This document shows positions 1-63,155 of a stretch of 64,000 nucleotides of DNA, piece by piece. Made by a program: the position numbers and the translations under genes. The first letter of the stretch is position 1, and every line of letters starts with the position of its first letter. The notes beneath the pieces are model-generated. The model had not been told where the DNA came from. It made no database searches and was given only the letters and a program-made list of their open reading frames with translations. The stretch covers positions 9,499-73,498 of the forward strand of contig JAQVLT010000002.1 in the NCBI GenBank assembly GCA_028704015.1, in the 5' to 3' direction. Source of the stretch: Patescibacteria group bacterium (GTDB taxonomy: Bacteria > Patescibacteriota > Patescibacteriia > Patescibacteriales > JAQVLT01).

Positions 1-579
1 ATCACCACGGTAACGCATAAACGTTTTTCGTATTTTTCCGAAGAGATATTTTGTGATTTGTTTATTGATAATTTGCGGATTTGTAAACAATTGAAAGATT
101 TTAAATTATATGGATTTATAATCGTTCCCGATCACGCACATTTGTTAATCAAGTCGGGAGAAAAATTTAATATTTCTGAGAAGATGTTTTCAATCAAAAA
201 GCAATTTTCGCATGATGTTAATCGCGTATTGGGTTTTAATGAGCCATATCCTGAAAATGTAAAAATTGAAGGCGGGCAAACGTTTGCCCGCCTTCAATGG
301 GAGAAAATTATTTTTCCACATCAAAAAAGAGTTAATAAATATCGCGAACAATTTATAAACAAATACGGCCACGATCAATTTCAAATCCCACCATTCAAAT
401 GGCAGGAATCGTTCCGTGACCATGTTATCCGTAACGAGAAAGATTTTTTAAATCATCTCAATTATATTTTTAATAATTGTGTCAAACATAATATTTATAA
501 TAATCCGGAAACATATCATTGGTCGTTTTGCAATGAAGAATTTAAGGATTTGATTGATGATTATTTTGGACAAAAATAA
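1..579 (+). CDS. HUH/Y1 IS200-like (RayT-like) transposase-family protein, 5' end outside window
   Basis: Frame is open from nt 1 (ITTVTHKRFSYF...). HUH motif in PDHAHLLIK; Tyr region LNYIFNNC. Paralogue of the 27186 and 62449 genes. Confidence 0.55.
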   Translation: MTTVTHKRFSYFSEEIFCDLFIDNLRICKQLKDFKLYGFIIVPDHAHLLIKSGEKFNISEKMFSIKKQFSHDVNRVLGFNEPYPENVKIEGGQTFARLQWEKIIFPHQKRVNKYREQFINKYGHDQFQIPPFKWQESFRDHVIRNEKDFLNHLNYIFNNCVKHNIYNNPETYHWSFCNEEFKDLIDDYFGQK

Positions 580-3915: not shown

Positions 3916-3947
3916 ATGAAGGCGACATTTACAAATGTCGCCTTCAT
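3916..3947. terminator. bidirectional hairpin between convergent smc and the 673-aa gene
   Basis: Perfect 15-bp arms atgaaggcgacattt / aaatgtcgccttcat, followed by tttta. Confidence 0.55.
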
Positions 3948-8249: not shown

Positions 8250-8284
8250 CCTCACCCTATCCCTCTCCTTTGCAAGGAGAGGGG
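8250..8284. repeat. CCCTCTCC/GGAGAGGG hairpin (family C)
   Basis: cctcaccc tat ccctctcc tttgcaa ggagagggg. The 3' arm sits 9 nt before the ATG at 8293 and looks like an SD. Confidence 0.6.
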
Positions 8285-8292
8285 ACGAAAAT

Positions 8293-9075
8293 ATGTATCA
8301 ACAATTACTCACAAATTCAGGTTTGGATAATAACCAGGCGGAGGTGCTGGAGTTTTTACTTATAAATGGTGAGCAGAAAGCCGGTGATATTTCAAAAAAT
8401 ACCAAGCTGGGGCGCGGCTTGGTTTATAAGGCCTTAGTTGAGCTAGAAAACATGAAGTTAATTGTTAAGAAAGAAAAAGATGGCGCTGTCGCCGTGTTTC
8501 TCGCCGAGCACCCGATTAATATTAAGAAAGTTTTAGAAAGTAAAGAAAAGCAAGCCGAGGAAAAGAAAAACGAAATAGTTAAACAACGCGAACTTCTGGA
8601 ACGCAGTCTACCGGATTTGGTCTCGGTTTATAATCTGAGCCATCATAAGCCGGGTGTCAGGTATTATGAAGGCGATGAAGGAATTCGCGAGGTGCTATAT
8701 GATACTTTGAATTCCAAAACAGAAATTTATACTTTTATTGATGTGGAGGCGGTGGAGAAAAATTTAAAAGAAATAAATTCCGAATACGCCAAGAAACGCG
8801 AGAAGCTTGGCGTTAAGAAAAAAATTATTGTAGCCGACACTGATGAAAATCGTAAGTTTTTTATGAATTATAACAAAACCATTACCGAGATTAGATATCT
8901 GAAAAAAGAGTTTTATCCTTTTGCGTCCGGCCTCCAAATTTATAATGGAAAAATTTCTTATCAGACTTTAAGTCAAAATCACAAAATCGCCGTATTAATT
9001 GAAGATCGGAATATTTACGAGATGCAGAAATTGTTTTTTGAATATATTTGGGAGAGTCTGGAAAAGTATTATTAG
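8293..9075 (+). CDS. TrmB-family transcriptional regulator
   Basis: N-terminal winged HTH (LDNNQAEVLEFLLINGEQKAGDISKNTKLGRGLVYKALVELENMKLI) plus a C-terminal TrmB-like domain. Confidence 0.65.
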   Translation: MYQQLLTNSGLDNNQAEVLEFLLINGEQKAGDISKNTKLGRGLVYKALVELENMKLIVKKEKDGAVAVFLAEHPINIKKVLESKEKQAEEKKNEIVKQRELLERSLPDLVSVYNLSHHKPGVRYYEGDEGIREVLYDTLNSKTEIYTFIDVEAVEKNLKEINSEYAKKREKLGVKKKIIVADTDENRKFFMNYNKTITEIRYLKKEFYPFASGLQIYNGKISYQTLSQNHKIAVLIEDRNIYEMQKLFFEYIWESLEKYY

Positions 9076-9228: not shown

Positions 9229-10260
9229 ATGAAAGATATAAAAGAGTTAATTTTAGCTAAAATTGAAAAATATGGGAGAGTGAATGCTTCGGTGATAGTT
9301 AAAGAAACCGGCTTTTCCCGCGCTTATGTTAACCGTTTTTTTCAAGAGTTAAGAAATGAGGGAAAAATAGTCTTAATTGGCAAAGCCAACCAAGCCAGTT
9401 ATATTAAGGCCGGCAAAAATGAGCTGGCTAAGGCAAAAAAATTATTTACCAAAGCTAAGAAGAAATATAATAATATTGGTTTATCAGAAGATGCAATTTT
9501 AGACCAAATCAAAAGAGAAACGGGAATTTTTTTAGATTTGCCTGTCGGCACCGCGAACATTGTGAGTTATGCTTTCACCGAAATACTTAATAATGCGATT
9601 GAACATTCCCGGTCAAAAGAAATAGAAATTTCCTTGAAGCGCGATTCGGCCGGCATACTATTTGAAGTGGTTGACCGTGGAGTTGGAATTTTTAAGAATA
9701 TTATGGCTATAAAAAGATTGCCTAGCGAGCTGGAGGCTATTCAAGATTTGCTTAAAGGCAAGCAGACAACTGCGCCGGCCGCGCATTCCGGCGAAGGTAT
9801 TTTCTTCACTTCCAAAGCGGCTGACATGCTGATAATTTCCAGCTTTACCAAAAAATTGATTTTCAATAATAAATTGGAGGATATTTTTATCCAAGACATT
9901 AAAAATTTTAAGGGTACAAAGGTAATTTTTTCGCTGGCGCTTAATACTAATAAAAATCTCGCTGCCATTTTTTCTGAATATTCTTCCGGTTCTTATGAAT
10001 TTTCCAAAACCAGAGTCAATATAAAATTATTCAAAATGGGAAATGAATATCTTTCTCGTTCGCAAGCCAGGAGGGTAATGAACGGCCTGGAAAAATTTAA
10101 AGAAATCATCTTGGATTTTAAAAATATTACTACTATCGGGCAGGGATTTGCCGATGAAATTTTTAGGATCTGGCAGAATCATTTTCCGCGAATCAAAATA
10201 ACAACAAAAAATTCCAATGAGAATATTGACTTTATGATTAATCGAGCCAGGGAAAGATAA
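9229..10260 (+). CDS. HTH + GHKL (HATPase_c) kinase-like + STAS-like DUF4325 fusion protein
   Basis: Start moved to 9229, downstream of the consensus promoter. N-box NNAIEHS and G1 box DRGVGIF. C-terminal SRSQARRVMNGLEKFKEIILDFKNITTIGQGFADEIF matches the DUF4325 pattern. Confidence 0.6.
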   Translation: MKDIKELILAKIEKYGRVNASVIVKETGFSRAYVNRFFQELRNEGKIVLIGKANQASYIKAGKNELAKAKKLFTKAKKKYNNIGLSEDAILDQIKRETGIFLDLPVGTANIVSYAFTEILNNAIEHSRSKEIEISLKRDSAGILFEVVDRGVGIFKNIMAIKRLPSELEAIQDLLKGKQTTAPAAHSGEGIFFTSKAADMLIISSFTKKLIFNNKLEDIFIQDIKNFKGTKVIFSLALNTNKNLAAIFSEYSSGSYEFSKTRVNIKLFKMGNEYLSRSQARRVMNGLEKFKEIILDFKNITTIGQGFADEIFRIWQNHFPRIKITTKNSNENIDFMINRARER

Positions 10261-10328
10261 AATATTCGGCAATAGAAATCGCCTATCGGGCGGTTTTTTG
10301 ATTTTAATAATTTTTTAAAATAAAAAAG

Positions 10329-10370
10329 CCCGACCGTTTACGTTCAGAACTTTGAACGTAAGCGATCGGG
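10329..10370 (-). terminator. rho-independent terminator of the lipoprotein gene
   Basis: Long hairpin cccgaccgtttacgttca ... tgaacgtaagcgatcggg, with a T-run on the minus strand. Confidence 0.65.
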
Positions 10371-14847: not shown

Positions 14848-14870
14848 GCCTTGCCTATCGGCAGACAGGC
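14848..14870. repeat. degenerate family B palindrome
   Basis: gccttgcctatcggcagacaggc, directly after the SBP stop codon. Confidence 0.4.
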
Positions 14871-17493: not shown

Positions 17494-17526
17494 GAAGGCG
17501 GCTCGCCAAATCGGCGAGCCGCCTTC
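17494..17526. repeat. GC-rich perfect hairpin (GCCGCCTTCG type)
   Basis: gaaggcggctcgcc aaatc ggcgagccgccttc. No T-run follows. Confidence 0.5.
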
Positions 17527-17538
17527 GTTAATTAGATA

Positions 17539-19236
17539 ATGGACAAAAATATTTATAAAAAAGAGATTGATGAATTGCTAAAAGTGAAGATTGGTTCGCG
17601 CCAAGATTTAATGGTAGCAAAAAGGAAAATTGCCAAGAAATATGGAATGGGAATTTTAACCAATTCTCAGATTTTGAGTTTTATTAAAAAACAAAATATC
17701 AAGAAAGAAACACCGGCATCTCGCCTTCTGGAAAATATTTTGCGTAAACGCGCGGTGCGAACGCTCTCCGGGATTGCTCCGGTCGCAGTATTAGTTAAAC
17801 CTTATAAATGTCCGGGAAAATGCGCTTATTGTCCAACAGAAAAAGACGTGCCGCAGAGTTATTTGTCAAACGAGCCGGCAGTGATGCGCGCGATTCGTTG
17901 TGATTATGATCCTTACACGCAAGTGCAAATGCGGCTTCGCGCTCTGGAAGCGAATGGACATCGGCCGGAAAAAATTGAATTGATTGTCATCGGCGGTACG
18001 TGGTCCTATTTGCCGGAAGAATATAAATTTTGGTACATCAAGGAATGTTTTCGAGCGGCGAACGAGTTTGTAAAAAATCAAAATGCAAAAATCAAAAGTC
18101 AAAATTACAATTCAAAATTAAAAACCTGCCTGCCGGTAGGCAAGGTTGAAAATTTAAAATTGAAACTTAAAAAAGAGCAGGAGAGAAATGAAAGTGCAAA
18201 ATACAGGATTATTGGAATTACGTTAGAGACCCGCCCCGATTATATTAATGAAAAAGAATTATTAGAGATGCGGGAGTTGGGTTGTACGCGCGTGGAATTG
18301 GGTGTGCAAGCGATTGATGATAAAATTTTAAATAAAAATAAACGCGGGCATGGTGTCAAAGAAATCGCGGCCGCGACAAAACTGCTGAAAGATTTCGGGT
18401 TTAAAGTAACTTATCATTTTATGCCCGGGCTTCCAGGATCAACGCCGGCCAAGGATTTAAAAATGTTTAAGCAATTATTTACTGATGAGCGCTTCCAGCC
18501 GGACCAAATAAAATTTTATCCAACCGTGGTGACGCGCGGCAGTTTGCTTTATCGTTGGTGGAAGGCAGGTAAATATAAACCATACTCAAATAAAATTTTA
18601 GAAAATTTAATTATTGCCTGCAAAAAAATCGTGCCGTCATATGTGCGAATAATTCGGTTGATTCGAGATATTCCGGGCGAGTCAATTATAGCCGGAAATC
18701 GCGTGACAAATCTGCGGCAGGTTCTAGAACAACGAGGCGTAAAGTGTAATTGTATTAGATGTAGAGAAGCACGTGGACAACAATTTACAATTAACAATTT
18801 ACAATTAACAATTCTAAAATATAAATCATCAGACGGAGAAGATTATTTTATTAGCGCGGACAGTAAAGATGGAAAAATTTTGTATGGATTTTGCCGATTG
18901 CGCCTTAAATCATCAAAACATGAAAACATTAAATCATTAAAACAAGATCGAGAAAATATGAAACTTGGTTTCGGGTACCCGAAACCAAGTTTCTTGGATG
19001 ACGCCGCGTTGATTCGGGAGTTGCATGTTTATGGAGAATTGGTGCCGGTGGGCGGTGGGAAAAAAGTTCAGCATGTTGGATTGGGAAAAAAATTAATGGC
19101 CGAAGCAGAGAGAATCGCGTATAAAAATGGTTTTAAGAAAATCGCAGTGATTGCCGGCATAGGCGTGCGTGGGTATTATCGGAAGTTAGGGTATCGACTG
19201 GAAAATAGTTATATGGTTAAGCAGTTACCTGGTTAA
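17539..19236 (+). CDS. elp3: Elp3-type radical-SAM/GNAT tRNA-modification enzyme
   Basis: Radical-SAM cluster motif CPGKCAYCP. C-terminal GNAT (HVGLGKKLMAEAERIA). Several repeat-derived in-frame inserts. Confidence 0.8.
   Translation: MDKNIYKKEIDELLKVKIGSRQDLMVAKRKIAKKYGMGILTNSQILSFIKKQNIKKETPASRLLENILRKRAVRTLSGIAPVAVLVKPYKCPGKCAYCPTEKDVPQSYLSNEPAVMRAIRCDYDPYTQVQMRLRALEANGHRPEKIELIVIGGTWSYLPEEYKFWYIKECFRAANEFVKNQNAKIKSQNYNSKLKTCLPVGKVENLKLKLKKEQERNESAKYRIIGITLETRPDYINEKELLEMRELGCTRVELGVQAIDDKILNKNKRGHGVKEIAAATKLLKDFGFKVTYHFMPGLPGSTPAKDLKMFKQLFTDERFQPDQIKFYPTVVTRGSLLYRWWKAGKYKPYSNKILENLIIACKKIVPSYVRIIRLIRDIPGESIIAGNRVTNLRQVLEQRGVKCNCIRCREARGQQFTINNLQLTILKYKSSDGEDYFISADSKDGKILYGFCRLRLKSSKHENIKSLKQDRENMKLGFGYPKPSFLDDAALIRELHVYGELVPVGGGKKVQHVGLGKKLMAEAERIAYKNGFKKIAVIAGIGVRGYYRKLGYRLENSYMVKQLPG
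18123..18147. repeat. family B palindrome inside the elp3 reading frame
   Basis: aacctgcctgccggtaggcaaggtt encodes TCLPVGKV. It sits in a ~100-nt AT-rich-armed insert (about 18076-18175). Confidence 0.65.
18960..18993. repeat. family A (GGGTACCC-core) perfect palindrome inside the elp3 reading frame
   Basis: gaaacttggtttcgggtacccgaaaccaagtttc encodes KLGFGYPKPSF. Confidence 0.7.
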
Positions 19237-22778: not shown

Positions 22779-22815
22779 ACCTCTCCCCCAGCCCCTCTCC
22801 TAGTCAGGAGAGGGG
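22779..22815. repeat. family C hairpin, left flank of the DUF559 gene
   Basis: acctctccccca g cccctctcc tagtca ggagagggg. Confidence 0.6.
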
Positions 22816-23183: not shown

Positions 23184-23185
23184 TT

Positions 23186-23219
23186 CCCTCTCCTGGCTAG
23201 GAGAGGGACAGAGAGAGGT
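23186..23219. repeat. family C hairpin, right flank of the DUF559 gene
   Basis: ccctctcc tggcta ggagaggg aca gagagaggt, ending at the folD ATG. Confidence 0.6.
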
Positions 23220-24216: not shown

Positions 24217-25950
24217 ATGTTTCATCAATTTTTGACCCGTGAGTTGTACAGTTGCGAAGAGGTAAGACCCGGGATTATCCGTCTGGCATTTTTTTGCAGC
24301 CAGGATTCAATGCCGGCACCAGGTCAATTTTTTGTTATAAAACCTTTTTCCGGGGTTATGCGCCGGCCGTTTTCCGTCGCCGAGCTTGGCGAGGGAATAG
24401 TGTCTTTGTATATACGGGTGGTGGGTAAAAATACCTTGGCATATTCCCGTCTGAAAAAAGGTGACAAAATTGAAATGGCGGGGCCGAAAGGGCGGCCGAT
24501 TGTTTTGGCGCCGGAATTGGAAAATTTGATTTTGGTCGCCGGCGGCATTGGCTTTGCGCCGTTCCTGTTTTTGCTTAAAGAAGCGGTGCGGCAAGGCAAG
24601 AAGGTCACAATTTTGCTCGGCGCGAAAAACAAAAGCCAGCTTTTCTCGGCTCCTTTCAAGGGATGGGGCGCGGCCGTGGAAACAATCACTGATGCAGACG
24701 GCTTCGTTACCGATTTGCTGGCCGGTTATCTCAAGAGCGATGCCGGCAAATCGGCGGTAATCGCCTGCGGACCGGTGGCGATGTTGGCGAAGACTGCTGA
24801 GATGTGTGCGGCCAGAAGCAATCCTTGCCAGGTCATCATGGAGGAAATGATGGCCTGCGGCGGCACGGGAGCCTGTAAAAGCTGTGCGGTTTTTGGCAAG
24901 GACGGTAGCGTCAAATACGTCTGCCAGGATGGCCCAGCTTTCCCGGCAAAATGGGTGGACTGGCCAAGACTTGAACAGCGTTTCAAGGTTATTTCACTAC
25001 CAGAGTCCTCGCCACATAGAGCCAATCCGTTGGCAATAGTCCTTCGCGGGCAACATGGTAGACAGCTTGTGCTTCGTTCGCCTCTTTTGCCTGCATCGGG
25101 TTGTTTTGACATCGGCCATGAAGGACCTACGGCTGAAATCGCAAGCGCCGGTGCTTTGATTTCCAAGGGTATAAAACCCCAGGTGACCAGCGGCAACCAG
25201 ACGCCTCGAGTTTGTGAGGTAAACGGCGGGATGCTCAATTCCATCGGTCTTGCCGGCCCAGGGATTGATGCGTTCATCGCCGAGCACCTGCCTTTTTGGC
25301 TGGCGACTGGATTGCCGGTGTTTGTGAACATCGCCGGTGCAACGATTGAGGACTATGAGGTAAACGCGGACAAGCTGGCGGGCACGGGAATCGCAGGCGT
25401 GGAAGTCAATGTCTCTTGTCCAAACCTCAAAAAAGGCGGAATGGCGTTTGGTACGTTGCCTATTGCCATCTACGAAATCACCAGCCGAGTGCGCCAGAAA
25501 TTACCCCATGCTTTTATCATCGTCAAGCATACGCCGCGCGCCATGGGCAACATCGTGATGGCAGCGCGGGCAGCGCGGGATGGCGGAGCAGATGCCAACT
25601 CCCTGATCAATACCATTCCGGCCCGGGCGATTGATATTCGTACCAGGAAGCCAAAGCTTGGCGCTGGTAGCGGCGGATTTTCTGGGCCAGCGATTCTGCC
25701 GATCGCCGTTCAACTCGTGTACGAGTTGGCCAAAGCCAATCTCGGCATCCCGATTATTGGCTGCGGTGGCGTTAATGACCCGGATGGCGCGACCCAGTTG
25801 ATTCTCGCTGGTGCGAGCGCGGTTGCGATCGGTGCAGGGCTTTTTGCCCAGCCCGATCTTTTGACTAAGATCGCCAGGTTTTGGAAAGAGGAATATCTTC
25901 CGTCGCAAGGAGTATATTCCATCCAGGATTTGGTCGGGAAAGGAGAATAA
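24217..25950 (+). CDS. pyrD: fused dihydroorotate dehydrogenase: PyrK electron-transfer domain + class 1B PyrD catalytic domain
   Basis: N-terminal half: RPFS FAD site, GGIGFAP, and the 2Fe-2S Cys cluster CGGTGACKSC...C. C-terminal half: LNSIGLAGPG, NVSCPN active-site Cys, GCGGV. One uninterrupted 577-aa ORF. Confidence 0.8.
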   Translation: MFHQFLTRELYSCEEVRPGIIRLAFFCSQDSMPAPGQFFVIKPFSGVMRRPFSVAELGEGIVSLYIRVVGKNTLAYSRLKKGDKIEMAGPKGRPIVLAPELENLILVAGGIGFAPFLFLLKEAVRQGKKVTILLGAKNKSQLFSAPFKGWGAAVETITDADGFVTDLLAGYLKSDAGKSAVIACGPVAMLAKTAEMCAARSNPCQVIMEEMMACGGTGACKSCAVFGKDGSVKYVCQDGPAFPAKWVDWPRLEQRFKVISLPESSPHRANPLAIVLRGQHGRQLVLRSPLLPASGCFDIGHEGPTAEIASAGALISKGIKPQVTSGNQTPRVCEVNGGMLNSIGLAGPGIDAFIAEHLPFWLATGLPVFVNIAGATIEDYEVNADKLAGTGIAGVEVNVSCPNLKKGGMAFGTLPIAIYEITSRVRQKLPHAFIIVKHTPRAMGNIVMAARAARDGGADANSLINTIPARAIDIRTRKPKLGAGSGGFSGPAILPIAVQLVYELAKANLGIPIIGCGGVNDPDGATQLILAGASAVAIGAGLFAQPDLLTKIARFWKEEYLPSQGVYSIQDLVGKGE

Positions 25951-25957
25951 AAAAAAC

Positions 25958-25990
25958 AAGGTCGGTTTGCATGAACGCAAATCCGACCTT
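25958..25990. terminator. bidirectional terminator between convergent pyrK-pyrD and pyrC
   Basis: aaggtcggtttgc atgaac gcaaatccgacctt, flanked by an A-run and a T-run. Confidence 0.7.
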
Positions 25991-26001
25991 TTTTATTTCC
26001 G

Positions 26002-27090
26002 TCACGAGAGCGGAACTGGGAAAAGCAACCGTGAACCGTTCCACGGATTCACGACTTTCCCGTTGTTGTATTGGAGGTCATCGATTTTTTCGATGAGTTG
26101 GTATGGCCGCAGTTTTCGTGGCGCTTTGATGCCAAGGAAATCAGCGGCGTTCCAGGAAAGGAGTTCGGCAACCCGTTCTTTGGGAATACCGAACATCGTC
26201 GCCAGAGTTACCACCACTGGGACCATTTCCTGATTAGATGGTATGCCTGAGGCGCCGGCGAGTTTTTCCGCATCAAGGTGGCAGGCACTGTCTGATGCTA
26301 CCCACAGAAGCTGGTTTTTTGTCCAGAGCTGTCTGACGAGAAATTCGCGGTGCGGGGCTGGCCGCAAGCGATTAAGACAGTCGTAGAATTTTGGATCCAG
26401 CGCCGGATTCCAATTGGTGCCGTCACTGTCAAACCACAGATATTGCGGCATGAGTTCCATGGCAATCAGCATGCCTTGCGCCTGCGCCTCGAGAATCAGC
26501 TCGGCGCTTTCACGGCAGGAGACATGGCAGATCAACACTTTGACTCCAGGCATCATTTTGGCGAGGCGGATTATCTTGCGGACGTACTCAACTTCTGCCC
26601 GGATAGTGTACCCTTCGCTGACAATGATCTTGGGATCGTCGCAGTGGACGGCCACTACTTTGCCAGCGGCGCGTGCGAGTTTGAGGATAGAGGTAATAGT
26701 TTTGTCGCGCGCCACGCCGATTTGGGAGCCAGTAGTTACCGACTTGCCGGCTTCGTCACGGGGATAAATTTTTGCCCCGATGACAAAGTCGTTTTGGAGC
26801 GCCAGCTGGCACTCGCGCAAATTGTCATCCGTTGCCCCGAACCAAACATACTGCTTGGGCCAGATGCTCAGTTTGTTTTTGGCTCTGATGATCAGGCCCA
26901 AATACTCAGTGAGCCTTACTAGGCTGGTTAAAGGCAAGTCGGTGTTGGGCTGGAAGCAGGTGATAGAAATGTGGGCCAAAAGAGCTTCGTGCAAGACTTG
27001 TTCAAGGGTGGTTTTGCGCGCCTGTTTTAAGTCGCGGCCATGGCAGTGACTGTCAACGATTACCCAAGGAAGCCAAAATATTTGGAACAT
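26002..27090 (-). CDS. pyrC: dihydroorotase-like amidohydrolase
   Basis: Metal ligands DSHCH, AKIY (candidate carboxylated Lys), HCDD, CHVS, ASDSACH. SD gaggaggg. Confidence 0.65.
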   Translation of the reverse strand: MFQIFWLPWVIVDSHCHGRDLKQARKTTLEQVLHEALLAHISITCFQPNTDLPLTSLVRLTEYLGLIIRAKNKLSIWPKQYVWFGATDDNLRECQLALQNDFVIGAKIYPRDEAGKSVTTGSQIGVARDKTITSILKLARAAGKVVAVHCDDPKIIVSEGYTIRAEVEYVRKIIRLAKMMPGVKVLICHVSCRESAELILEAQAQGMLIAMELMPQYLWFDSDGTNWNPALDPKFYDCLNRLRPAPHREFLVRQLWTKNQLLWVASDSACHLDAEKLAGASGIPSNQEMVPVVVTLATMFGIPKERVAELLSWNAADFLGIKAPRKLRPYQLIEKIDDLQYNNGKVVNPWNGSRLLFPVPLS

Positions 27091-27185: not shown

Positions 27186-27917
27186 ATGCGAAAAATGAGT
27201 TTCCAAAATGAAAATTATTATCATATTTATAATAGAGGTGTTGATCACCGGGATATTTTTGGCGATGCCAATGATTTTGGCAGGTTTATCAGAAGTATGA
27301 GAATAATGAATAATAACTCAAATGAAGGACAACGTGATTATGTTTTGAGAAAAATGTTTAAAAGTGGTAAATATCCGGAGCTTAGCTCTGGGTACCCAGA
27401 GCTAAGCTCCTTAACGTCTGGTCTTTTTAATATTTTTAACCAGGAATTAAGATTAGTTGTAAGGAACTATTATAATTTTGTCGAAATAATTTCTTATTGT
27501 TTAAATAAAAATCACTATCATTTATTATTAAAACAATTAATTGATAAAGGCGTTGAAAAATTTCTCCACAAGATTGGCACTAGTTATACAAATTATTTCA
27601 ATTTGAGAAGTAAGCGTTCCGGCTCTCTTTTTGAAACCACTTATAAATCTGCTTATCTCGATACCGAAGGAAAAATTATTCGCGCGTCCACCTATATCAA
27701 CGGCAACCCGGAAATTCATAAAATTTGCCGGGCGGAAAATTGGCCGTGGTCCAGTTATTTAGATTATCTGGGGTTGAGAAGCGGCACGATGTGTAATAAA
27801 GAAATAATTTTAAGTCAATTTAGGTCTATTGAAGAATATCGGAAGTTTGTTAAGATGATTATAAGGGATGAAAAGGCGATTAAAGATGAATTGGAGAAAA
27901 TTGATGATAAATATTAG
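27186..27917 (+). CDS. HUH/Y1 IS200-like (RayT-like) transposase-family protein
   Basis: YHIYNRG strand, HUH motif NHYHLLL, Tyr region STYINGNP, NWPWSSYLDY tail. Carries an internal palindrome. Confidence 0.65.
   Translation: MRKMSFQNENYYHIYNRGVDHRDIFGDANDFGRFIRSMRIMNNNSNEGQRDYVLRKMFKSGKYPELSSGYPELSSLTSGLFNIFNQELRLVVRNYYNFVEIISYCLNKNHYHLLLKQLIDKGVEKFLHKIGTSYTNYFNLRSKRSGSLFETTYKSAYLDTEGKIIRASTYINGNPEIHKICRAENWPWSSYLDYLGLRSGTMCNKEIILSQFRSIEEYRKFVKMIIRDEKAIKDELEKIDDKY
27377..27410. repeat. family A palindrome inside the RayT-like ORF
   Basis: ggagcttagctctgggtacccagagctaagctcc is a perfect 34-nt palindrome. It encodes PELSSGYPELSS. Confidence 0.7.
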
Positions 27918-27950
27918 AAACTTAGTTTCGGGTACCCGAAACTAAGTTTC
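27917..27950. repeat. family A palindrome abutting the stop codon of the RayT-like gene
   Basis: gaaacttagtttcgggtacccgaaactaagtttc is a perfect 34-nt palindrome. Confidence 0.7.
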
Positions 27951-27961
27951 GTTAATTAAAA

Positions 27962-30097
27962 ATGTCCGACAAAAAACAACAACTCAAAGATCTTCTGAAA
28001 ATTCATTACGGCTATGATTCTTTTCGTCCTGGGCAGGAAAAAGCGCTGGATAATATTTTGGCCGGTAAAAGTTCAATTATTATTATGCCAACTGGCGGCG
28101 GCAAGTCTTTAATTTACCAATTACCTTCTTTAATCTTGGAAGGTGTCACTATTGTCATTTCTCCTTTGATTGCCTTGATGAAAGATCAGGTTGATTCGCT
28201 TACTCGCATCGGCATTCCGGCAACTTTTATTAATTCTTCCATTGGCATGGCAGAAGCTTTGGAACGTTTGGAAGCGGTAAAGAGCGGACATTATAAAATT
28301 CTCTACATCGCGCCAGAAAGATTTTATAATGAAGATTTTATTAAAGCGCTTAAAGAAATCGAAGTTAGTTTATTTGCAATTGATGAAGCGCATTGTATCA
28401 GCCAGTGGGGACATGATTTTCGCCCCAGTTATTTGAAATTAAAATATGCGGTTGAGCAGGCGGGAAATCCTACGGTAGTGGCTTTGACAGCCACGGCCAC
28501 TCCTGAGGTAAAAGAAGACATCGCGAAACAAATAGGATTGGTTGATCCCGAATTTATAGTCACCGGTTTTGGCCGGCCGAATTTACAGTTTGGCGTGATT
28601 CAAGCGAAAGACGCGGAGAAGTTCAGGCTGGTGGTTGATGCTGTTAACAGCGCGCCTGATGGAGCGGGAATAATTTACACGGGCACGAGAAACAAGGCGG
28701 AAGAAATCGCCCAAATACTTCTGGATCAGGGAATTGACGCGGTGGTATATCACGGCGGTATGGATGCGGAAGATAGAAAATGGGTGCAGGAAAATTTTAT
28801 GGCGAACAAAGCCAAAGTAATTGTCGCCACTAACGCTTTTGGGCTTGGCATCGACAAGCGCGACATCCGTTTCGTGATTCATTTTGAAATGCCCGGAACG
28901 ATTGAGGCTTATTATCAGGAGGCAGGACGAGCCGGGCGTGATGGCAAGCCGAGTTTTTGCCTATTATTTTATCACCCGCGCGATCGCTATCTTCAAGAAT
29001 TTTTTATCAAAGGCGACAATCCGCCGCCAAACATAGTTTTAGAAATTTATGAACTGCTTTTGAATTACGAAACCGACAATATTTTAATTACTTATGCTGA
29101 ATTGGCGGAAGGTTTGTCGGAAAAATTGCCGGAGATGGCGATTGGCACAAGTTTAAAAATTTTGGAACGTGAGGGATACATAACTCGTCCGAACGAGAAA
29201 GTCGGGAGCGCGTACTTGGAGTTAATTTCACGGCCCGAAGCAATTTTAGAAACGCTCGGGAAGCGCGCGAAAAATAGTATAGAAATTTTTAATAAATTAG
29301 TCGTTCGCTATCACGATGATATGACTAATGGTTGGCGTTTTAATCCCGATGAAGTGGCCGGCATTTTGGAAATTAACAAAGAACCGCTCATGCGTTTGGT
29401 GCGAAAAATTGCTGATGCCGGTTTGGTAAAATATGAACCGCCTTTTCGCGGCACAGAAATTAATATTCTTAAACGAGTAGATTCAAGCGAAATTAAAATT
29501 GATTTTTCCGCCATGAAAGCGAAACTAAGAAACGCCTACGATAAGTTAGATAGGATTGAAGACTATATTTACCATTTTGACTGCCGGCAGAAATATATTT
29601 TGGATTATTTTGGTGACGCGAACGCGCATGTCTGCGGCAAATGTGATAATTGTTTGACCGGTTCGGGCTATAAAAGAAAAAATCAGGCGCCGGAAAGAAA
29701 AAAAGAGGAAGAAAAATTTGATTATAAAAAATTTAGAAAGAAAAAAATAGCGGATGAGAGTGAGTTTGAAATTGAACCGCCAAAGAAGGGTGGGCTAAAT
29801 ACAAAATTAACCCAGCTGGAAACTTTGGACTTGTTTGTTAAAGGATCAAGTATTGATGAAATTGCCGAAGAGCGTGAACTTAAGCGTGATACGGTTATAA
29901 ATCACCTGTGTTTTTTAATTGAGAAAAAATTAATCAAAGATATTGATAAATTAGTAACACCGGGAATACAGAAAAAGATTTTGAAAGCGGTTGAGAAAGT
30001 TGGTGTTGAAAAATTAACACCGATCAAAGAAGAACTCGGAGACGAAGTTGGCTGGGATGAGATAAAGTTGGTGGTGGCGAAAGAACGAACGAAATAG
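27962..30097 (+). CDS. recQ: ATP-dependent DNA helicase RecQ
   Basis: [23 protein letters not shown], Zn-binding C...CGKCDNC, and a C-terminal HTH extension. Confidence 0.9.
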
Positions 30098-33186: not shown

Positions 33187-33261
33187 GCTTCCGTGGTGAA
33201 ATGGATATCACGCTTGGCTTCGGACCAAGAATTTCGGGTTCGAATCCTGACGGGAGCACCA
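33187..33261 (+). tRNA. tRNA-Arg (anticodon TCG), CCA encoded
   Basis: Hand-folded cloverleaf: acceptor gcttccg/cgggagc, D stem gtga/tcac, anticodon stem cttgg/ccaag with loop cttcgga, T arm tcggg ttcgaat cctga. Confidence 0.75.
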
Positions 33262-33341
33262 AGAGATTTAAGATTTTTGATTTGCGATTGTTGATTTTTG
33301 TTTAGATTTTAAATCGTAAATCATAAATTGTAAATTAGCGA

Positions 33342-33415
33342 GGCTGGGTAGCTCAGTTGGTTAGAGCGTAGCACTCATAACGCTAAGGTCGAGAGTTCGA
33401 GCCTCTCCCCAGCTA
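33342..33415 (+). tRNA. tRNA with CAT anticodon (elongator Met or Ile2)
   Basis: Acceptor ggctggg/cccagct, D arm gctcagttggttagagc, anticodon loop ctcataa, T arm gagag ttcgagc ctctc. CCA is not encoded. Confidence 0.75.
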
Positions 33416-33522
33416 CAAAGTCAACTTTTAACAGTTGACAATTGACAGATTGACAATTAGTTGCGAGTATTTTTTGTGTAATTAGTTAATTGTTAAATGT
33501 TAAAAGTCAATAGTTGTTATTT

Positions 33523-33595
33523 GCGCTCATAGCTCAGCTGGTAGAGCAGTTGCCTCTTAAGCAAACGGTCGCAGGTTCGAATCCTGCTGGGCGCA
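33523..33595 (+). tRNA. tRNA-Lys (anticodon CTT)
   Basis: Acceptor gcgctca/tgggcgc, D arm gctcagctggtagagc, anticodon loop ctcttaa, T arm gcagg ttcgaat cctgc. Confidence 0.8.
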
Positions 33596-44318: not shown

Positions 44319-44931
44319 CCTGTCTGCCGGCAGGCAGGCTAAATAAATTCAAAATACTAAATCTAAATGATCAAAACAGCGACTAATTATTACGATTTGG
44401 AAGAAAGAACGTTAAAATTCGCTAAAATGGTAAGAGAATTTATTAAGAAATTGCCGAAAACAATTTCTAATATAGAAGATAGTAAACAATTAGCTCGTTC
44501 ATCCGGATCGGTTGGCGCTAACTACATTGAAGCTAACGAAGCATTAAGCAAGAAAGACTTTGTCATGAGAATAAAAATTTGCCGCAAAGAAGCGAAAGAA
44601 TCAAAATATTGGCTGTTACTAATTGATTGCCAAAAAGAATTAATACTAGAACGTGACACCTTAATTAAAGAAGCAACCGAACTAACTAAAATATTTGGAG
44701 CAATTTTAGAGAAATGCAAATAAAATAGTTGTATAATAGTGTTTTGAGTTTAAATAATTAGAATTTTGAATTTGTTTAGGATTTAGAGTTTAGTGCTTAG
44801 GGTTTCAGGAATGTTATAGCAGGAAGCGCAGGAATTAACTCTAATTTTTTCACGAATCACGCTCACCTTAGAAAAGAAAATTTAAAATTTAGTAATTTAT
44901 CATTCAATTAACCTGCCTGCCGGCAGACAGG
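44319..44931. mobile_element. 613-bp cassette: four-helix-bundle gene between inverted family B palindromes and AT-rich subterminal inverted repeats
   Basis: 44319-44338 (cctgtctgccggcaggcagg) is the exact reverse complement of 44912-44931. Inner arms (ctaaat.../aaattcaaaat versus attttgaattt/...atttag) match the gene-less element at 58564-58695. Confidence 0.5.
44367..44723 (+). CDS. four-helix-bundle protein (23S rRNA intervening-sequence protein family)
   Basis: SSGSVGANYIEANEALSKKDFVMRIKICRKEAKESKYWLLLI. Confidence 0.75.
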   Translation: MIKTATNYYDLEERTLKFAKMVREFIKKLPKTISNIEDSKQLARSSGSVGANYIEANEALSKKDFVMRIKICRKEAKESKYWLLLIDCQKELILERDTLIKEATELTKIFGAILEKCK

Positions 44932-55422: not shown

Positions 55423-56151
55423 ATGTCCGGACATTCCAAATGGGCAACAACTAAAAGGCATAAAGCGGTTATTGATTCTAAGCGCGCCGCTGTTTTTACT
55501 AAAATCGCCAACATAATTACCATTGCCGCGCGTGAAAAAGGCGGTGATCCAACGACTAATTTTTCTTTGCGCATGGCAATGGACAAAGGACGGGCGGTTA
55601 ATATGCCAAAAGATAACATTGAACGCGCGATCAAGCGCGGTACCGGCGAAGGTGATGGGGCGCAGATTGAGGAAATAATTTATGAAGGCATTGGCCCGGT
55701 GAAATCTCAGTTTATAATTAAATGTTTGACAGATAGTCGTAACCGCACAGCCTCCGAGGTTCGTCATATTTTTTCTGAATATGGCGGAGCGCTTAGTTCT
55801 GTTATGTGGAATTTTTCTAAAAAAGGAGTTTTGCGAATTATGAATGAAGAATTACAAAGCAAGAATTTAATAAATGAGGAATTTGAGTTAGAGCTGATTG
55901 ATGCTGGCGCCCAGGATATTTTGAAAGAAGAAGAAGGCTGGACAATTTATACTAAGATGGAAGATTTGGTAAAAGTTAAGAATTTTTTAGAAAGTAAAAA
56001 TTTAGCAACAGAATCAGCTGATATTGAGTATGTTGCCAAAGATACGGTAAAAGTTGAAAATGCGGAAGATCAAGAAAAAATGGAAAAATTTATTGAAGAA
56101 TTGGAAAATAATGAAGATGTGAGCGATTATTATACGAATGCAATCACATAA
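55423..56151 (+). CDS. yebC: YebC/PmpR-family transcriptional regulator
   Basis: MSGHSKWATTKRHKA start and full-length family pattern. The last codons run into a family D repeat. Confidence 0.9.
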   Translation: MSGHSKWATTKRHKAVIDSKRAAVFTKIANIITIAAREKGGDPTTNFSLRMAMDKGRAVNMPKDNIERAIKRGTGEGDGAQIEEIIYEGIGPVKSQFIIKCLTDSRNRTASEVRHIFSEYGGALSSVMWNFSKKGVLRIMNEELQSKNLINEEFELELIDAGAQDILKEEEGWTIYTKMEDLVKVKNFLESKNLATESADIEYVAKDTVKVENAEDQEKMEKFIEELENNEDVSDYYTNAIT

Positions 56152-56218
56152 CACATATCACATAACACATATCACTTAGCAATAATTGTTTTGTGATATG
56201 TGTTATGTGCTATGTGAT
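56143..56218. repeat. family D (CACATAACACAT) inverted repeat, gene-less hairpin
   Basis: atcacataacacatatcacataacacatatcac / gtgatatgtgttatgtgctatgtgat with a 17-nt loop. Overlaps the yebC stop and the ruvC start. Confidence 0.65.
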
Positions 56219-61874: not shown

Positions 61875-62495
61875 ATGTCCGTGGAAACCCATATTTATGA
61901 TAAGCGTTTTTTTAAGAATACCATCAAATTGGAAGATGATTCTGCGGCGGCCGCAGTTTCTATTTTGATAAAATATTTTTTGCCCAGATCAGTTATTGAT
62001 ATTGGTTGCGGTTGTGGAATTTATTTGAAAGAATTTTCAAATCAAGGCGTAGAAATTTTTGGATACGACGGCGCTCCGGCAGCGCTTGAATCTTCACTGG
62101 TTGGCGACAAAATCAAGCTTCATGATTTATGCGTGCCATTGGTAATAAATAAAAAATTTGATCTTTGCCTCTGCGTTGAAGTCGCTGAACATTTACCGCC
62201 CGAATACGCTAATATTTTAGTTGAGACTTTGGCAAATTTATCTGACATTATTATTTTTTCTGCCGCCACTCCGGGCCAAGGTCCGCGTTCCATCGGACAT
62301 ATCAACGAACAGCCGCCGGAATATTGGCTAGAAAAATTTCAATCTAAAAATTTTATTTTTGACCAAAATATATCTTTAAAGATAAAAAAAGAAATGGAAG
62401 AAAAGGGTGTTGTCTGGTGGATTACTAAGAATTTAATGATATTTAAAAATGACCCGTGTCAAACCCGAGCCGGAAAAAATTTACCACATTTATAA
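61875..62495 (+). CDS. class I SAM-dependent methyltransferase
   Basis: Motif I IDIGCGCG. The 3' tail overlaps the 5' fragment of the disrupted RayT-like gene in another frame. Confidence 0.65.
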   Translation: MSVETHIYDKRFFKNTIKLEDDSAAAAVSILIKYFLPRSVIDIGCGCGIYLKEFSNQGVEIFGYDGAPAALESSLVGDKIKLHDLCVPLVINKKFDLCLCVEVAEHLPPEYANILVETLANLSDIIIFSAATPGQGPRSIGHINEQPPEYWLEKFQSKNFIFDQNISLKIKKEMEEKGVVWWITKNLMIFKNDPCQTRAGKNLPHL

Positions 62496-62515
62496 CCTGC
62501 CTACCGGCAGGCAGG
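62496..62515. repeat. family B palindrome interrupting the YHIYN|RG motif
   Basis: cctgcctaccggcaggcagg. Removing these 20 nt restores one continuous ORF. Confidence 0.7.
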
Positions 62516-62660
62516 TCGTGGCGTTGAAAAAAGAAAGATATTTATGGATAAATGGGATTATATTAGATTTTTAGAAAGTACGAGAGAGTTTAATTGTGAT
62601 GAACCGATTGGCAGTCTCTATTTAAAAAAATATCTCGCCCAAAAAAACAAAGTTAGCCAA

Positions 62661-62692
62661 GGTGTCGGACACCCTATAGGGTGTCCGACACC
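62661..62692. repeat. perfect 32-nt palindrome inside the RayT-like reading frame
   Basis: ggtgtcggacaccctatagggtgtccgacacc encodes GVGHPIGCPTP. It occupies the same position as the family A palindrome in the 27186 paralogue. Confidence 0.7.
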
Positions 62693-63155
62693 TAAACAAG
62701 AGATTTTAGTTGAATATTTAGCTTATTGTCTACTGCCTAATCATTTTCATTTTTTAATTATAGAAAAATCAGAGGGAGGTATCCCAAAATTCATGAAAAG
62801 GCTAAGCGGTGGCTATACTAATTATTTTAACAAAAAATATCTTCGCACCGGTTCATTGTTCCAAGGGAAATATAAAATATTTGAAGTAAAGTATAGTCAT
62901 TTTTTAAAATTATCCGTTTATGTTAATTGTAATGCCGAAGTGCATAAAATCAACCGAGCGGAAAATTGGCCATGGTCAAGCTATTTGGATTATATCAATG
63001 AAAGAAACGGAACTTTATGCAATTAAGAATTAATTTTGGAAGAATTTGGCAGCCGAAATAATTTTAAAAAATTTTGCCAAACAATTTTACCTGATATAAT
63101 AAAAAATAAAGAGTTATCGGAAAATTTAACTGAATAATTAAATTGCAAAGGGTTC

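Follow-up and report, generated by a model that had tools for sequence, protein, structure and literature searches.

Genes and palindromes of the locus

The stretch of Patescibacteria DNA analysed here (64 kb, referred to below as the window) carries three Y1 genes, each with a different hairpin family. Family A belongs to the focal gene, family B to the second Y1 gene and family C to a pseudogene; coordinates are collected in Table 1. The stop codon of the focal gene occupies 27915–27917 and recQ begins at 27962, 12 nt past the post-stop palindrome. The window contains five perfect palindromes with 17-nt arms. The positions and letters of the three family A members are exactly those given in an earlier note on this DNA, which missed the remaining two, each inside a further Y1 gene.

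Table 1. Y1 genes and hairpins of the window (positions are those of the window)
Feature	Position	Strand	Remarks
Second Y1 gene (P0121), subfamily 2	1–579, 5' end before the window	+	Full length 214 aa
In-ORF perfect 34-nt palindrome, family B, TGAAGGCG...CGCCTTCA	265–298		In second Y1 gene
Dispersed family B hairpin	3916–3947		15-bp stem, 2-nt loop; after smc stop
Dispersed family B hairpin	17494–17526		14-bp stem; 13 nt upstream of elp3 ATG
Dispersed perfect 34-nt palindrome, family A	18960–18993		In frame within elp3 (ORF 17539–19236); peptide KLGFGYPKPSF
Focal gene, RayT-like HUH/Y1 nuclease, subfamily 1	27186–27917, including TAG stop	+	243 aa
In-ORF perfect 34-nt palindrome, family A, ggagcttagctctGGGTACCCagagctaagctcc	27377–27410		Inside focal gene; GGAGCT arms, GGGTACCC core
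Post-stop perfect 34-nt palindrome, family A, gaaacttagtttcGGGTACCCgaaactaagtttc	27917–27950		GAAACT arms; first base is the G of the stop codon TAG
Third Y1 gene, subfamily 1 paralogue, now a pseudogene	62449–63137	+	41% identical to focal gene
In-ORF perfect 34-nt palindrome, family C (AGGTGTCGGACACC CTATAG ...)	62660–62693		Same loop position as 27377–27410

The focal protein bears the motifs YHIYNRG (residues 12–18), NHYHLLL (109–115) and STYINGNP (168–175), and its identification as an HUH/Y1 protein, proposed earlier from these hallmarks, was borne out. It scores 26.4 bits against Pfam Y1_Tnp (cut-off 23), a model matched by 22 of 22 aligned homologues, and His110, His112 and Tyr170 are invariant across 73 homologous genes. 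The Y1_Tnp match is restricted to residues 99–173 because an insert of ∼58 aa splits the domain. Against the NCBIfam model REP_Tyr_transpos (NF047646) the protein reaches 23 bits, below the cut-off of 80. An AlphaFold model (pLDDT 80) has as its top Foldseek match in the PDB entry 4ER8, E. coli RayT with a REP hairpin (E = 4e-6), followed by IS608 TnpA and ISDra2 TnpA. A family profile searched against the PDB by sequence gave no match at E up to 1, and kinship to the solved RayT structures therefore rests on the fold. The in-ORF palindrome starts at the third base of codon 64, extends to codon 75 and codes for Pro64–Ser75 (PELSSGYPELSS) within loop residues 62–80, which are predicted to be disordered (pLDDT < 50). 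Taken together, the focal ORF of this Patescibacteria genome probably encodes a divergent HUH nuclease of the RayT/TnpA(REP) type with a single tyrosine, and the 34-nt palindromes would be its cognate REP-like elements.

Architecture and predicted fold of the palindromes

The GGGTACCC core occurs three times in the window against 0.26 expected, with none of 100 shuffles reaching three, and 20 shuffles never produced a perfect palindrome beyond a 10-nt arm; chance is thereby excluded as the source of the window palindromes. An assembly artefact was rejected, since the same palindromes are found in independent NCBI, JGI and ENA assemblies. As single-stranded DNA, each palindrome is predicted to form a single hairpin with a 15-bp stem and a loop of 4 nt, at a free energy between −14 and −18.5 kcal/mol (z = −6 to −8). 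This single long hairpin takes 68–85% of the ensemble, so that folds with several hairpins, raised as an alternative in the earlier note, are minor. The same note had called the elp3 arm much less palindromic than the others, which is not the case: GAAAC-TTG-GTTTC has the same 5+3+5 self-complementarity as the other copies and lacks only the sixth pair, T–A.

The layout of the palindromes is 13-8-13, self-complementary 13-mers (5-bp stem, 3-nt loop) surrounding an 8-nt core, with the two units 21 bp apart centre to centre in the window copies. A better description is that of a 13-nt mini-hairpin doubled head-to-head, an arrangement that is REPIN-like. In the elements of relatives, which also have palindromic spacers, the unit spacing is 19–23 bp and the total length 28–62 nt, the length of 34 nt being a feature of this lineage only. 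A lox/FRT-type 34-bp 13-8-13 site with an asymmetric spacer was rejected on account of the palindromic spacers and of the lengths in relatives. Distant relatives have single hairpins with the same apex instead of doublets, and singlet units are also present at L017 8805 and 10658; the stem base ACTTRG/CYAAGT is conserved in the single-hairpin relatives. An intrinsic terminator at the post-stop palindrome was considered and rejected, as a terminator-like score was obtained on the minus strand only.

The pattern of the family A core gave six exact matches in a very large metagenome collection, all of them perfect palindromes in differing contexts and all with mirrored loop triplets. Within 64–73 kb of this genome there are three family A copies (two at the focal gene) and about seven of family B, and the family A copy number looks low in the 64-kb window. 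In agreement with the earlier statement that no GTAG-type guide is evident, the flanks of ∼30 palindromes revealed no GTAG-type tag, conserved flank or cleavage motif. The hexamer AAATAT stands to the left of all three family A copies in the window and was not seen in relatives. A few unrelated palindromes in relatives begin with GTAG (L086 6900, L001 1705).

The second and third Y1 genes

The second Y1 gene scores 102.5 bits against REP_Tyr_transpos (cut-off 80) and is thus a RayT by the curated model, which is also passed by 19 of 19 of its homologues. Its 5' end is supplied by L089; with 0 mismatches in 4,599 nt, L089 belongs to the same genome. The in-ORF family B palindrome lies between the HUH motif and the tyrosine and encodes IEGGQTFARLQ, which is kept at the same place in 19 homologues. 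A family B copy 31 nt upstream of the start codon (L089 9373–9402) is identical in 30 of 30 bases, and in the orthologue L087 the in-ORF hairpin differs by a compensated A·T to G·C change. In the third gene the frame is shifted by a 20-nt hairpin insertion after YHIYN, and an in-frame TAA follows at 63024–63026; no further family C copies were found in the window. Hairpin families D and E, also present in the window, lie near no Y1 gene, and some hairpins may therefore spread by other means.

Hairpins across the gene family

The subfamily of the focal gene comprises at least 1,125 clusters at 50% identity (E up to 1e-30). Hairpins, defined by a perfect stem of at least 10 bp, were counted at 88 near-full-length Y1 genes, all but three from other genomes, and in the loci gathered around them (1.19 Mb in total). 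An in-ORF hairpin is present in 67 of the 88 genes, almost always at nt ∼150–230 in a disordered loop; 38 genes have a hairpin ∼45 nt before the start codon, 43 have one 3–92 nt past the stop, and in 16 a single hairpin family is represented upstream, internally and downstream. The hairpin density is 1.36 per kb inside Y1 genes and 3.36 per kb in their ±150-nt flanks, compared with 0.134 per kb elsewhere in the surrounding 10-kb neighbourhoods, an enrichment of 10–25 fold; the shuffled 1.19 Mb contained five hairpins in total. In an unselected scan of folding energy over 84 genes, the mean dips sharply to ∼−20 kcal/mol at nt 145–195, against a background of −7 to −9 kcal/mol. Hairpins of one gene have a 9-mer in common in 69 of 84 pairs (82%) versus 3.5% between loci, and the sharing of hairpins between genes climbs from 2% to 100% with protein identity.

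The earlier note had proposed that a cognate hairpin moved into the coding region of the focal gene as a special event. The in-ORF copies at the same loop position in three quarters of the census (67 of 88) do not support this, nor do the second Y1 subfamily, which has an in-ORF hairpin at another loop, and the other two Y1 genes of the window. The in-ORF hairpin is a near-universal, ancestral trait of this family and not an accident. Comparison shows a gene-specific hairpin that fills up to three fixed places: ∼45 nt upstream, in the in-ORF loop and just past the stop. The wider proposal of a REPtron-like unit was supported: with hairpins that are specific to the gene and concentrated in and next to it, gene and hairpins do behave as such a unit. 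The possibility that the C-terminal part, bounded by the internal and the 3' hairpin, forms a mobile cassette was also considered and was rejected, as the apparent C-terminal-only fragments are explained by L079, a diverged full-length gene, and L044, a gene that has a gapped long palindrome and an N-terminus that is degraded or truncated by the contig end.

Inheritance at the recQ locus and turnover in elp3

In the orthologue L086, the protein of which is 64% identical to the focal protein, the in-ORF palindrome is identical in 34 of 34 bases and present twice through a 51-nt tandem duplication. The post-stop palindrome is likewise identical in 34 of 34 bases, although the intergenic flanks cannot be aligned. 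The rest of the gene has ∼72% nucleotide identity, as estimated from the list of invariant columns. Such strict conservation across an estimated nucleotide divergence of roughly 28% argues that the gene-linked hairpin is functional, not junk. The Y1 gene lies directly upstream of recQ in the window and in L086, L001 and L017, with RecQ proteins that are ∼62% identical (shown for L001 and L017), and a DHODH gene lies upstream of the Y1 gene in the window and in L086. There is no clear 5' hairpin copy at the focal gene, where an amidohydrolase gene has been inserted relative to L086. These four genomes indicate that the Y1 gene is vertically inherited at a stable chromosomal locus, unlike an insertion sequence. 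A functional link between the Y1 gene and recQ was rejected, as the synteny is confined to the closest relatives.

The elp3 palindrome lies within an 11–18 aa lineage-specific insert of a variable Elp3 loop, as judged against Elp3 structures in the PDB, L034 and P0145/L088. It is absent from the orthologue P0145/L088, which is 84% identical over the aligned C-terminal region, and the loop around it cannot be aligned even at this level of identity. The sister genome, with its 64% identical Y1 protein, keeps both gene-linked palindromes in 34 of 34 bases and lacks the elp3 copy. In L017, elp3 carries its own genome's hairpin family at a different loop. By this comparison, gene and hairpins are inherited together at a stable locus, with extra copies scattered, sometimes in frame as in elp3.

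Comparison with known systems

A REPtron consists of a RayT/TnpA(REP) gene flanked by REP/BIME sequences (PMC2817692; PMC3333891; PMC3479197, PDB 4ER8; PMC8266576). The Patescibacteria unit resembles it in having a single-tyrosine HUH nuclease with a RayT-like fold (here in a predicted structure), short palindromes specific to the gene, found beside it and at scattered sites, a locus that is stably and vertically inherited, and perfectly palindromic repeats, as in group 3 REPs. One difference is the additional copy within the ORF, at a loop that is conserved; the REPs of the E. coli K-12 control lie in the flanks of rayT only. Further differences are the lack of a 5' GTAG/CGTC tag at the hairpin foot, the host phylum, the score of the focal gene below the curated RayT cut-off and an apparently low copy number, with several of the copies intragenic, compared with extragenic REPs at roughly 100 or more per genome. 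Classical RAYTs are single copy per genome, whereas several diverged Y1 genes per genome occur here (three in 64 kb).

REPIN–RAYT systems (PMC3116915, Bertels and Rainey 2011; PMC5581495, 2017) are alike in their doublets of two inverted REP-like hairpins that fold as one long hairpin, in the occurrence of singlets (here in L017), in the joint divergence of enzyme and repeat family and in vertical inheritance. The doublets here are only 28–62 nt long and mostly perfect, and one lies within the RAYT reading frame, whereas the known systems are described as a single-copy RAYT with extragenic REPINs. IS200/IS605 elements share the enzyme superfamily, hairpins close to both ends of the gene and the lack of target duplications; unlike them, the present genes give no sign of moving, and their perfect hairpins, which are often doublets, differ in orientation among themselves and include an internal one.

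Short palindromes in frame in coding genes and tolerated in loops, as in elp3 here, are also known from intragenic REPs and Rickettsia palindromic elements (RPEs). The latter, reportedly found by Ogata in 2000 to lie in frame in protein-coding genes, measure about 100–150 bp and are not known to have an enzyme. REP ends that supply a TAG stop codon have already been described (Di Nocera 2013, PMC3733652). None of the reports on intragenic REPs or RPEs describes a REP inside the RAYT gene itself. Rolling-circle Rep proteins have their nick site inside their own gene (phiX174 gene A, pT181 repC); they are alike in being HUH enzymes with a cognate hairpin or nick site in their own coding sequence, an arrangement that favours cis action. 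They are phage and plasmid replication initiators, whereas here a chromosomal gene encodes a Y1 transposase fold and no replicon is involved. In the searchable literature we found no account of RAYT/REP in Patescibacteria and none of a REP within a RAYT ORF, and the arrangement appears to be a variant of the bacterial REP/RayT repeat system that has not yet been described.

Alternative explanations

The locus might be an ordinary IS200/IS605-type insertion sequence, with the flanking hairpins as its ends, the whole gene transposing and the internal hairpin incidental. A Y1 TnpA-like enzyme, IS608 and ISDra2 TnpA as next-best structural matches, hairpins ∼45 nt upstream and 3–92 nt downstream in many members and several Y1 copies per genome would fit. 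We nevertheless consider it unlikely, given a gene that stays at the same locus upstream of recQ in four genomes and paralogues within one locus that are 33–69% identical, with no near-identical copies. The elements are moreover near-perfect palindromes in mixed orientation rather than two like-oriented imperfect ends, and these hairpins are also found singly, at a great distance from Y1 genes and within other ORFs. We attach similarly little probability to the hairpins acting mainly as RNA (in the 5'-UTR, internally and at the 3' end) on translation, mRNA stability or termination, without being enzyme substrates. Their positions are fixed relative to start and stop codons, and IS200 represses its own transposase through RNA hairpins, both of which speak for such a role. 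In other bacteria, REPs stabilize mRNA and frequently lie just downstream of ORFs (PMC3733652). Against it, the same sequences turn up between genes and within unrelated ones, in both orientations with respect to the neighbouring genes; no T-run follows the post-stop palindrome on the plus strand before recQ begins; an Rfam scan of the window returned three tRNAs only and no family matching the hairpins; and most long palindromes are perfect Watson–Crick helices with zero G·T pairs, which is unusual for RNA-selected helices. A role as RNA could coexist with one as DNA.

Slightly less improbable, if still unlikely, is that the palindromes are self-propagating, or are moved by another enzyme or by template-switch or fold-back events, and merely accumulate in tolerant Y1 loops and flanks. 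Fold-back copying would fit the nested symmetry (each palindrome being built of palindromes) and the abundance of perfect copies, and the 51-nt tandem duplication in L086 and the families D and E point the same way. Such a process gives no account of the three fixed positions at which every Y1 gene carries a hairpin family of its own, of the joint divergence of hairpin and protein, or of the contrast between conservation in 34 of 34 bases at the gene and turnover of the elp3 copy; nor were target-site duplications or DDE-type terminal inverted repeats seen around the palindromes. Selection on a peptide motif (ELSS-x3-ELSS) or on a double-stranded operator for a DNA-binding regulator, with palindromy secondary, is very improbable. 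In its favour, the motif is kept in many ∼50%-identical homologues and the 13-bp units of the window copies are spaced 21 bp apart. The peptide as the selected feature was rejected, however, as orthologues and paralogues keep the hairpin while the encoded peptides are unrelated (DTRCP.GHRVS, EGGQTFARLQ, VSQGVGHPIGCPTP); the segment is also predicted to be disordered, unit spacing and length vary among relatives, and some copies lie outside ORFs.

Proposed model and implications

We favour, with moderate confidence, a REPtron/REPIN-like unit of Patescibacteria with a cognate hairpin embedded in the ORF of the nuclease. Each palindrome would be a miniature REPIN, made of two 13-nt mini-hairpin units (5-bp stem, 3-nt loop) placed head-to-head around an 8-nt core. 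By analogy with E. coli RayT and IS608 TnpA, the palindrome would fold as a 15-bp hairpin when the DNA becomes single-stranded and be bound by the enzyme, which would nick nearby through Tyr170 with a metal held by the HUH motif and then rejoin the strands. By the same analogy, nicking and rejoining would place the hairpin, by copying or transfer, at further single-stranded sites and would maintain uniformity among the copies around the enzyme's own gene. The internal copy would be translated as a tolerated loop and may be kept for action in cis, for example to damp or sense the expression of the enzyme or, alternatively, as a master copy of the repeat that stays physically linked to it; both roles are speculative. 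Catalysis on these hairpins and any role of the internal copy are what we infer from the related systems. That the in-ORF hairpin is a functional self-target, a conserved and loop-encoding hairpin at which the nuclease recognizes its own gene or mRNA and may also nick or recombine it, is a tentative suggestion that we regard as rather doubtful. If true, it would mean a built-in feedback on enzyme dose or a permanent linkage of master repeat and enzyme, and no such enzyme–substrate linkage was found in the searchable literature for any transposase-derived gene.

REP/REPIN–RAYT systems have been studied mostly in Proteobacteria, and the present unit would bring a REP/RayT-like system to a new host group, the reduced genomes of Patescibacteria. 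For annotation, gene callers and domain models see a Y1 domain split by a hairpin-encoded insert. As hairpins insert in frame in housekeeping genes such as elp3, they add protein-length variation in these small genomes. Each gene carries its own presumed substrate in and beside its ORF, so that sequence alone would yield dozens to hundreds of matched enzyme–hairpin pairs as a basis for deriving a recognition code.

Y1 nuclease genes and palindromes of the window

The earlier note described the 27186 gene as a RayT-like HUH/Y1 gene with palindromes within its frame, at its stop codon and in elp3; on re-reading this description is exact in coordinates and sequences, and the finding is real but much wider than claimed. 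The remaining two perfect 34-nt palindromes of the window, overlooked there, likewise lie inside Y1 genes. Of the five long palindromes in the 64 kb, four thus lie within a Y1 gene or touch one. All five have 17-nt arms, compared with at most 10-nt arms in shuffled copies, and the family A core GGGTACCC, which pairs with the 27186 gene in this genome, occurs three times in the window against 0.26 expected. In single-stranded DNA, each palindrome forms a single hairpin of 15 bp closed by a 4-nt loop (-14 to -18.5 kcal/mol), a fold that dominates the ensemble, and the one- or three-hairpin alternatives envisaged earlier are therefore only minor.

Coordinates of Y1 genes, palindromes and other repeats in the window
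Feature	Position	Strand	Description
Gene 1	1-579		ORF runs off window start; DHAHLL and NYIFNN motifs; holds palindrome 265-298
27186 gene ORF	27186..27917	+	243 aa; YHIYNRG aa 12-18, NHYHLLL 109-115, STYINGNP 168-175
In-ORF perfect 34-nt palindrome ggagcttagctctGGGTACCCagagctaagctcc	27377-27410		translated as P64-S75, PELSSGYPELSS
Post-stop perfect palindrome gaaacttagtttcGGGTACCCgaaactaagtttc	27917-27950		first base is G of TAG stop; ends 12 nt before recQ (27962)
elp3 palindrome gaaacttggtttcGGGTACCCgaaaccaagtttc	18960-18993		in frame within elp3, ORF 17539..19236
Third Y1 gene	62449-63137		holds palindrome 62660-62693, in slot matching that of 27186 gene, sequence unrelated
Family B, dispersed copies	3916-3947, 17494-17526		
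(A)CCTGCCTRCCGGYAGGCAGG(T) copies	14850-14869, 18125-18144, 44319-44338, 44912-44931, 62496-62515		
CCCCTCTCCT-loop-AGGAGAGGGG copies	8261-8283, 22792-22815, 23185-23208		10-bp stem, 3-4 nt loop
Long imperfect hairpins	1147-1222, 56144-56217		7-nt periodic CACATAA/CACATAT repeat
Scattered CACATAA/CACATAT	36078, 56680, 57061, 59273		
Three clustered tRNA genes	33187-33595		only Rfam matches in window

Gene 1 belongs to a different subfamily from the 27186 gene and passes the curated RayT model (102.5 bits), as do 19/19 of its homologues. Family B (TGAAGGCG...CGCCTTCA) pairs with it: one copy is in the ORF, another lies 31 nt upstream of the start with 30/30 bases identical, and besides the dispersed copies more occur upstream in L089, a locus of the same genome. 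The third Y1 gene, with which family C pairs, is a pseudogene in which a 20-nt hairpin insertion after YHIYN shifts the frame, with an in-frame TAA at 63024-63026; it still retains its perfect palindrome, the family's sole copy in the window.

The frameshifting insertion is itself a member of a separate family of 20-22 nt palindromes (five window copies, 0 expected; also at loci L010, L030, L086 and L087), for which no associated enzyme gene was seen; another copy is in frame within elp3 (TCLPVGKV). The periodic heptamer has 17 matches against 0.15 expected, and one of its hairpins closely precedes the smc start (1232).

The 243-aa protein

The 27186 ORF is a RayT-like Y1 nuclease gene. An identical protein, named 'transposase', is encoded in a Patescibacteria group MAG. 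All 73 intact homologues keep H110, H112 and Y170, which upholds the HUH and Tyr residues first read from the sequence. The match to Pfam Y1_Tnp (26.4 bits, cut-off 23) is limited to aa 99-173 because an insert of ~58 residues separates helix 1 from the HUH strand. The protein falls below the cut-off of the NCBI curated RayT model (23 bits vs 80), and its family profile found no match in the PDB by sequence. The AlphaFold model (pLDDT 80) has its best match in E. coli RayT with a REP hairpin bound (4ER8, E = 4e-6), followed by IS608 TnpA and ISDra2 TnpA, and places the palindrome-encoded peptide within the sole long low-confidence loop (residues 62-80). The subfamily is large, with at least 1,125 clusters at 50% identity (E up to 1e-30).

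A hairpin within the reading frame is a family trait

Members of the gene family commonly have such a hairpin. In the protein alignment, ELSS-x3-ELSS stands at the matching place in ~50%-identical homologues. For comparison, 79 homologue-bearing loci of species-representative genomes (1.08 Mb) were used, all of them neighbourhoods of Y1 genes. Across 84 full-length genes, taken without selection for hairpins, a folding scan gave an even background (-7 to -9 kcal/mol) with one sharp trough at nt 145-195 (mean ~-20) and a smaller one at nt ~430-460, due to distant members. Perfect hairpins (stem >=10 bp, loop <=6 nt, GC >=0.3) were present inside the ORF in 67/88 genes, upstream in 38/88 (mode ~-45 nt) and 3-92 nt past the stop in 43/88; 16/88 had all three and 8/88 none. 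Their density was 1.36 per kb inside Y1 genes and 3.36 per kb in the +-150-nt flanks, compared with 0.134 per kb elsewhere in these neighbourhoods, and shuffled sequence gave five over the whole set. In some members (L032, L046, L048, L058, L072, L079) there are two internal hairpins, which occupy both permissive loops (nt ~150-230 and ~430-480).

The second subfamily, that of gene 1, also has an in-ORF hairpin, at another loop, one that lies between HUH and Tyr. There palindrome B encodes EGGQTFARLQ, a conserved peptide with R and L invariant. The gene 1 orthologue at L087 shows a compensated change (AAACGTTT to AAGCGCTT) and has further copies upstream and downstream. In the control, E. coli K-12 rayT, REPs are confined to the flanks.

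The window palindromes are doublets of a 13-nt self-complementary unit (5-bp stem and 3-nt loop, GGAGC-TTA-GCTCY or GAAAC-TTA-GTTTC), an 8-nt core and the inverted unit. In close relatives the doublets measure 34-52 nt and are built from different units and cores; more distant relatives have single hairpins with a matching apex and a conserved ACTTRG/CYAAGT base, e.g. ACTTGGAAACTTAGTTTCCAAGT. L017 also has single units, at 8805 and 10658. The 34-nt length is particular to this lineage, and the doublet and singlet logic is that of REPs and REPINs on a small scale.

Specificity, constraint and turnover

The hairpins are gene-specific and diverge together with the enzyme. A 9-mer was common to 69/84 hairpin pairs within one gene and to 3.5% of 10,768 pairs between loci; sharing increased with protein identity, being 2% at 30-40%, 26% at 60-70% and 100% at 80-90%, where identity was taken over columns without the hairpin-encoded loop.

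Hairpins are constrained at the Y1 gene and turned over elsewhere. In the window and at L086 (the sister-genome orthologue), L001 and L017, the gene is directly followed by recQ; DHODH lies upstream of the gene in the window and at L086. At L086 (64% protein identity) both gene-linked palindromes are identical in 34/34 bases, against an estimated nucleotide identity of ~72% over the remainder of the gene; the in-ORF palindrome occurs twice there (10255-10339), in a 51-nt tandem duplication (PELSSGYPELSSLNARC x2). The more distant L001 and L017 have wholly different palindromes in matching slots, and L003 has the window's two with positions swapped. The Y1 gene and its hairpins are passed on vertically together.

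In elp3, the family A copy sits in a variable loop, within an insert specific to the lineage; the sister elp3, with 84% identity across the aligned C-terminal part, lacks this copy, and L017 elp3 bears L017's own family at another loop. A metagenome scan for the family A core gave six matches, each a perfect palindrome whose loop triplets are mirrored. One occupies the internal slot of a Y1 gene; the rest are found elsewhere, including one within a 676-codon open frame. Sporadic copies occur elsewhere, some in frame within other genes.

The window elp3 bears three hairpin families, B 13 nt before the ATG and D (18125-18144) and A in frame; other Patescibacteria Elp3 (L017, L043, P0151) have further lineage-specific inserts in matching loops. 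The amidohydrolase gene (26002-27090, minus strand) is not between DHODH and the Y1 gene in L086, and the 5' flank of the 27186 gene has therefore been remodelled in the window genome; the DHODH and amidohydrolase genes have 53-55% GC (GC-rich stretch 24500-27000) vs 33-35% in the adjacent Y1 gene. Palindromes also cluster, BIME-like, in single short intergenic regions (L087 1031-1227; L034 4714-4771 and 5537-5594, one directly after elp3).

Relation to known systems

Intragenic REPs and REP ends providing a TAG stop are already known (PMC3733652), as are perfect palindromic REPs for group 3 RayTs (PMC8266576). RAYTs in the literature are single-copy genes with extragenic REPINs, unlike the present arrangement; our literature search found no RAYT/REP system reported in Patescibacteria and no REP within a RAYT reading frame. 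The 27186 gene lacks the GTAG tag. GTAG...CTAC perfect palindromes (e.g. GTAGAGACGCAAAATTTTGCGTCTCTAC) do occur at L086 6900-6927, L001 1705-1736 and L087 1198-1227, two of them within long ORFs, FTHFS in L086 and one of 397 codons in L001, and may be a GTAG-tagged REP family of these same genomes.

A gene-specific hairpin family occupies up to three fixed positions at its Y1 gene. An ordinary insertion sequence is improbable for a unit inherited vertically, and a structure working purely at the RNA level is equally so beside palindromes dispersed outside the gene. That another mechanism spreads the hairpins, which merely pile up at Y1 genes, is unlikely too, if marginally less so; the divergence of hairpin with enzyme speaks against it. 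A peptide motif or operator, for which the conserved loop peptides might speak, is very improbable for hairpins both inside and outside frames.

The unit is best classed as a variant REPtron/REPIN-RAYT system. If RayT and IS608 are a guide (PMC8266576), the Y1 enzyme would bind the folded single strand, nick it through Tyr170 and rejoin strands, which would spread the hairpin and homogenise its copies. The internal copy might, we would guess, act in cis, for example in dose control or as a master copy linked to its own enzyme.
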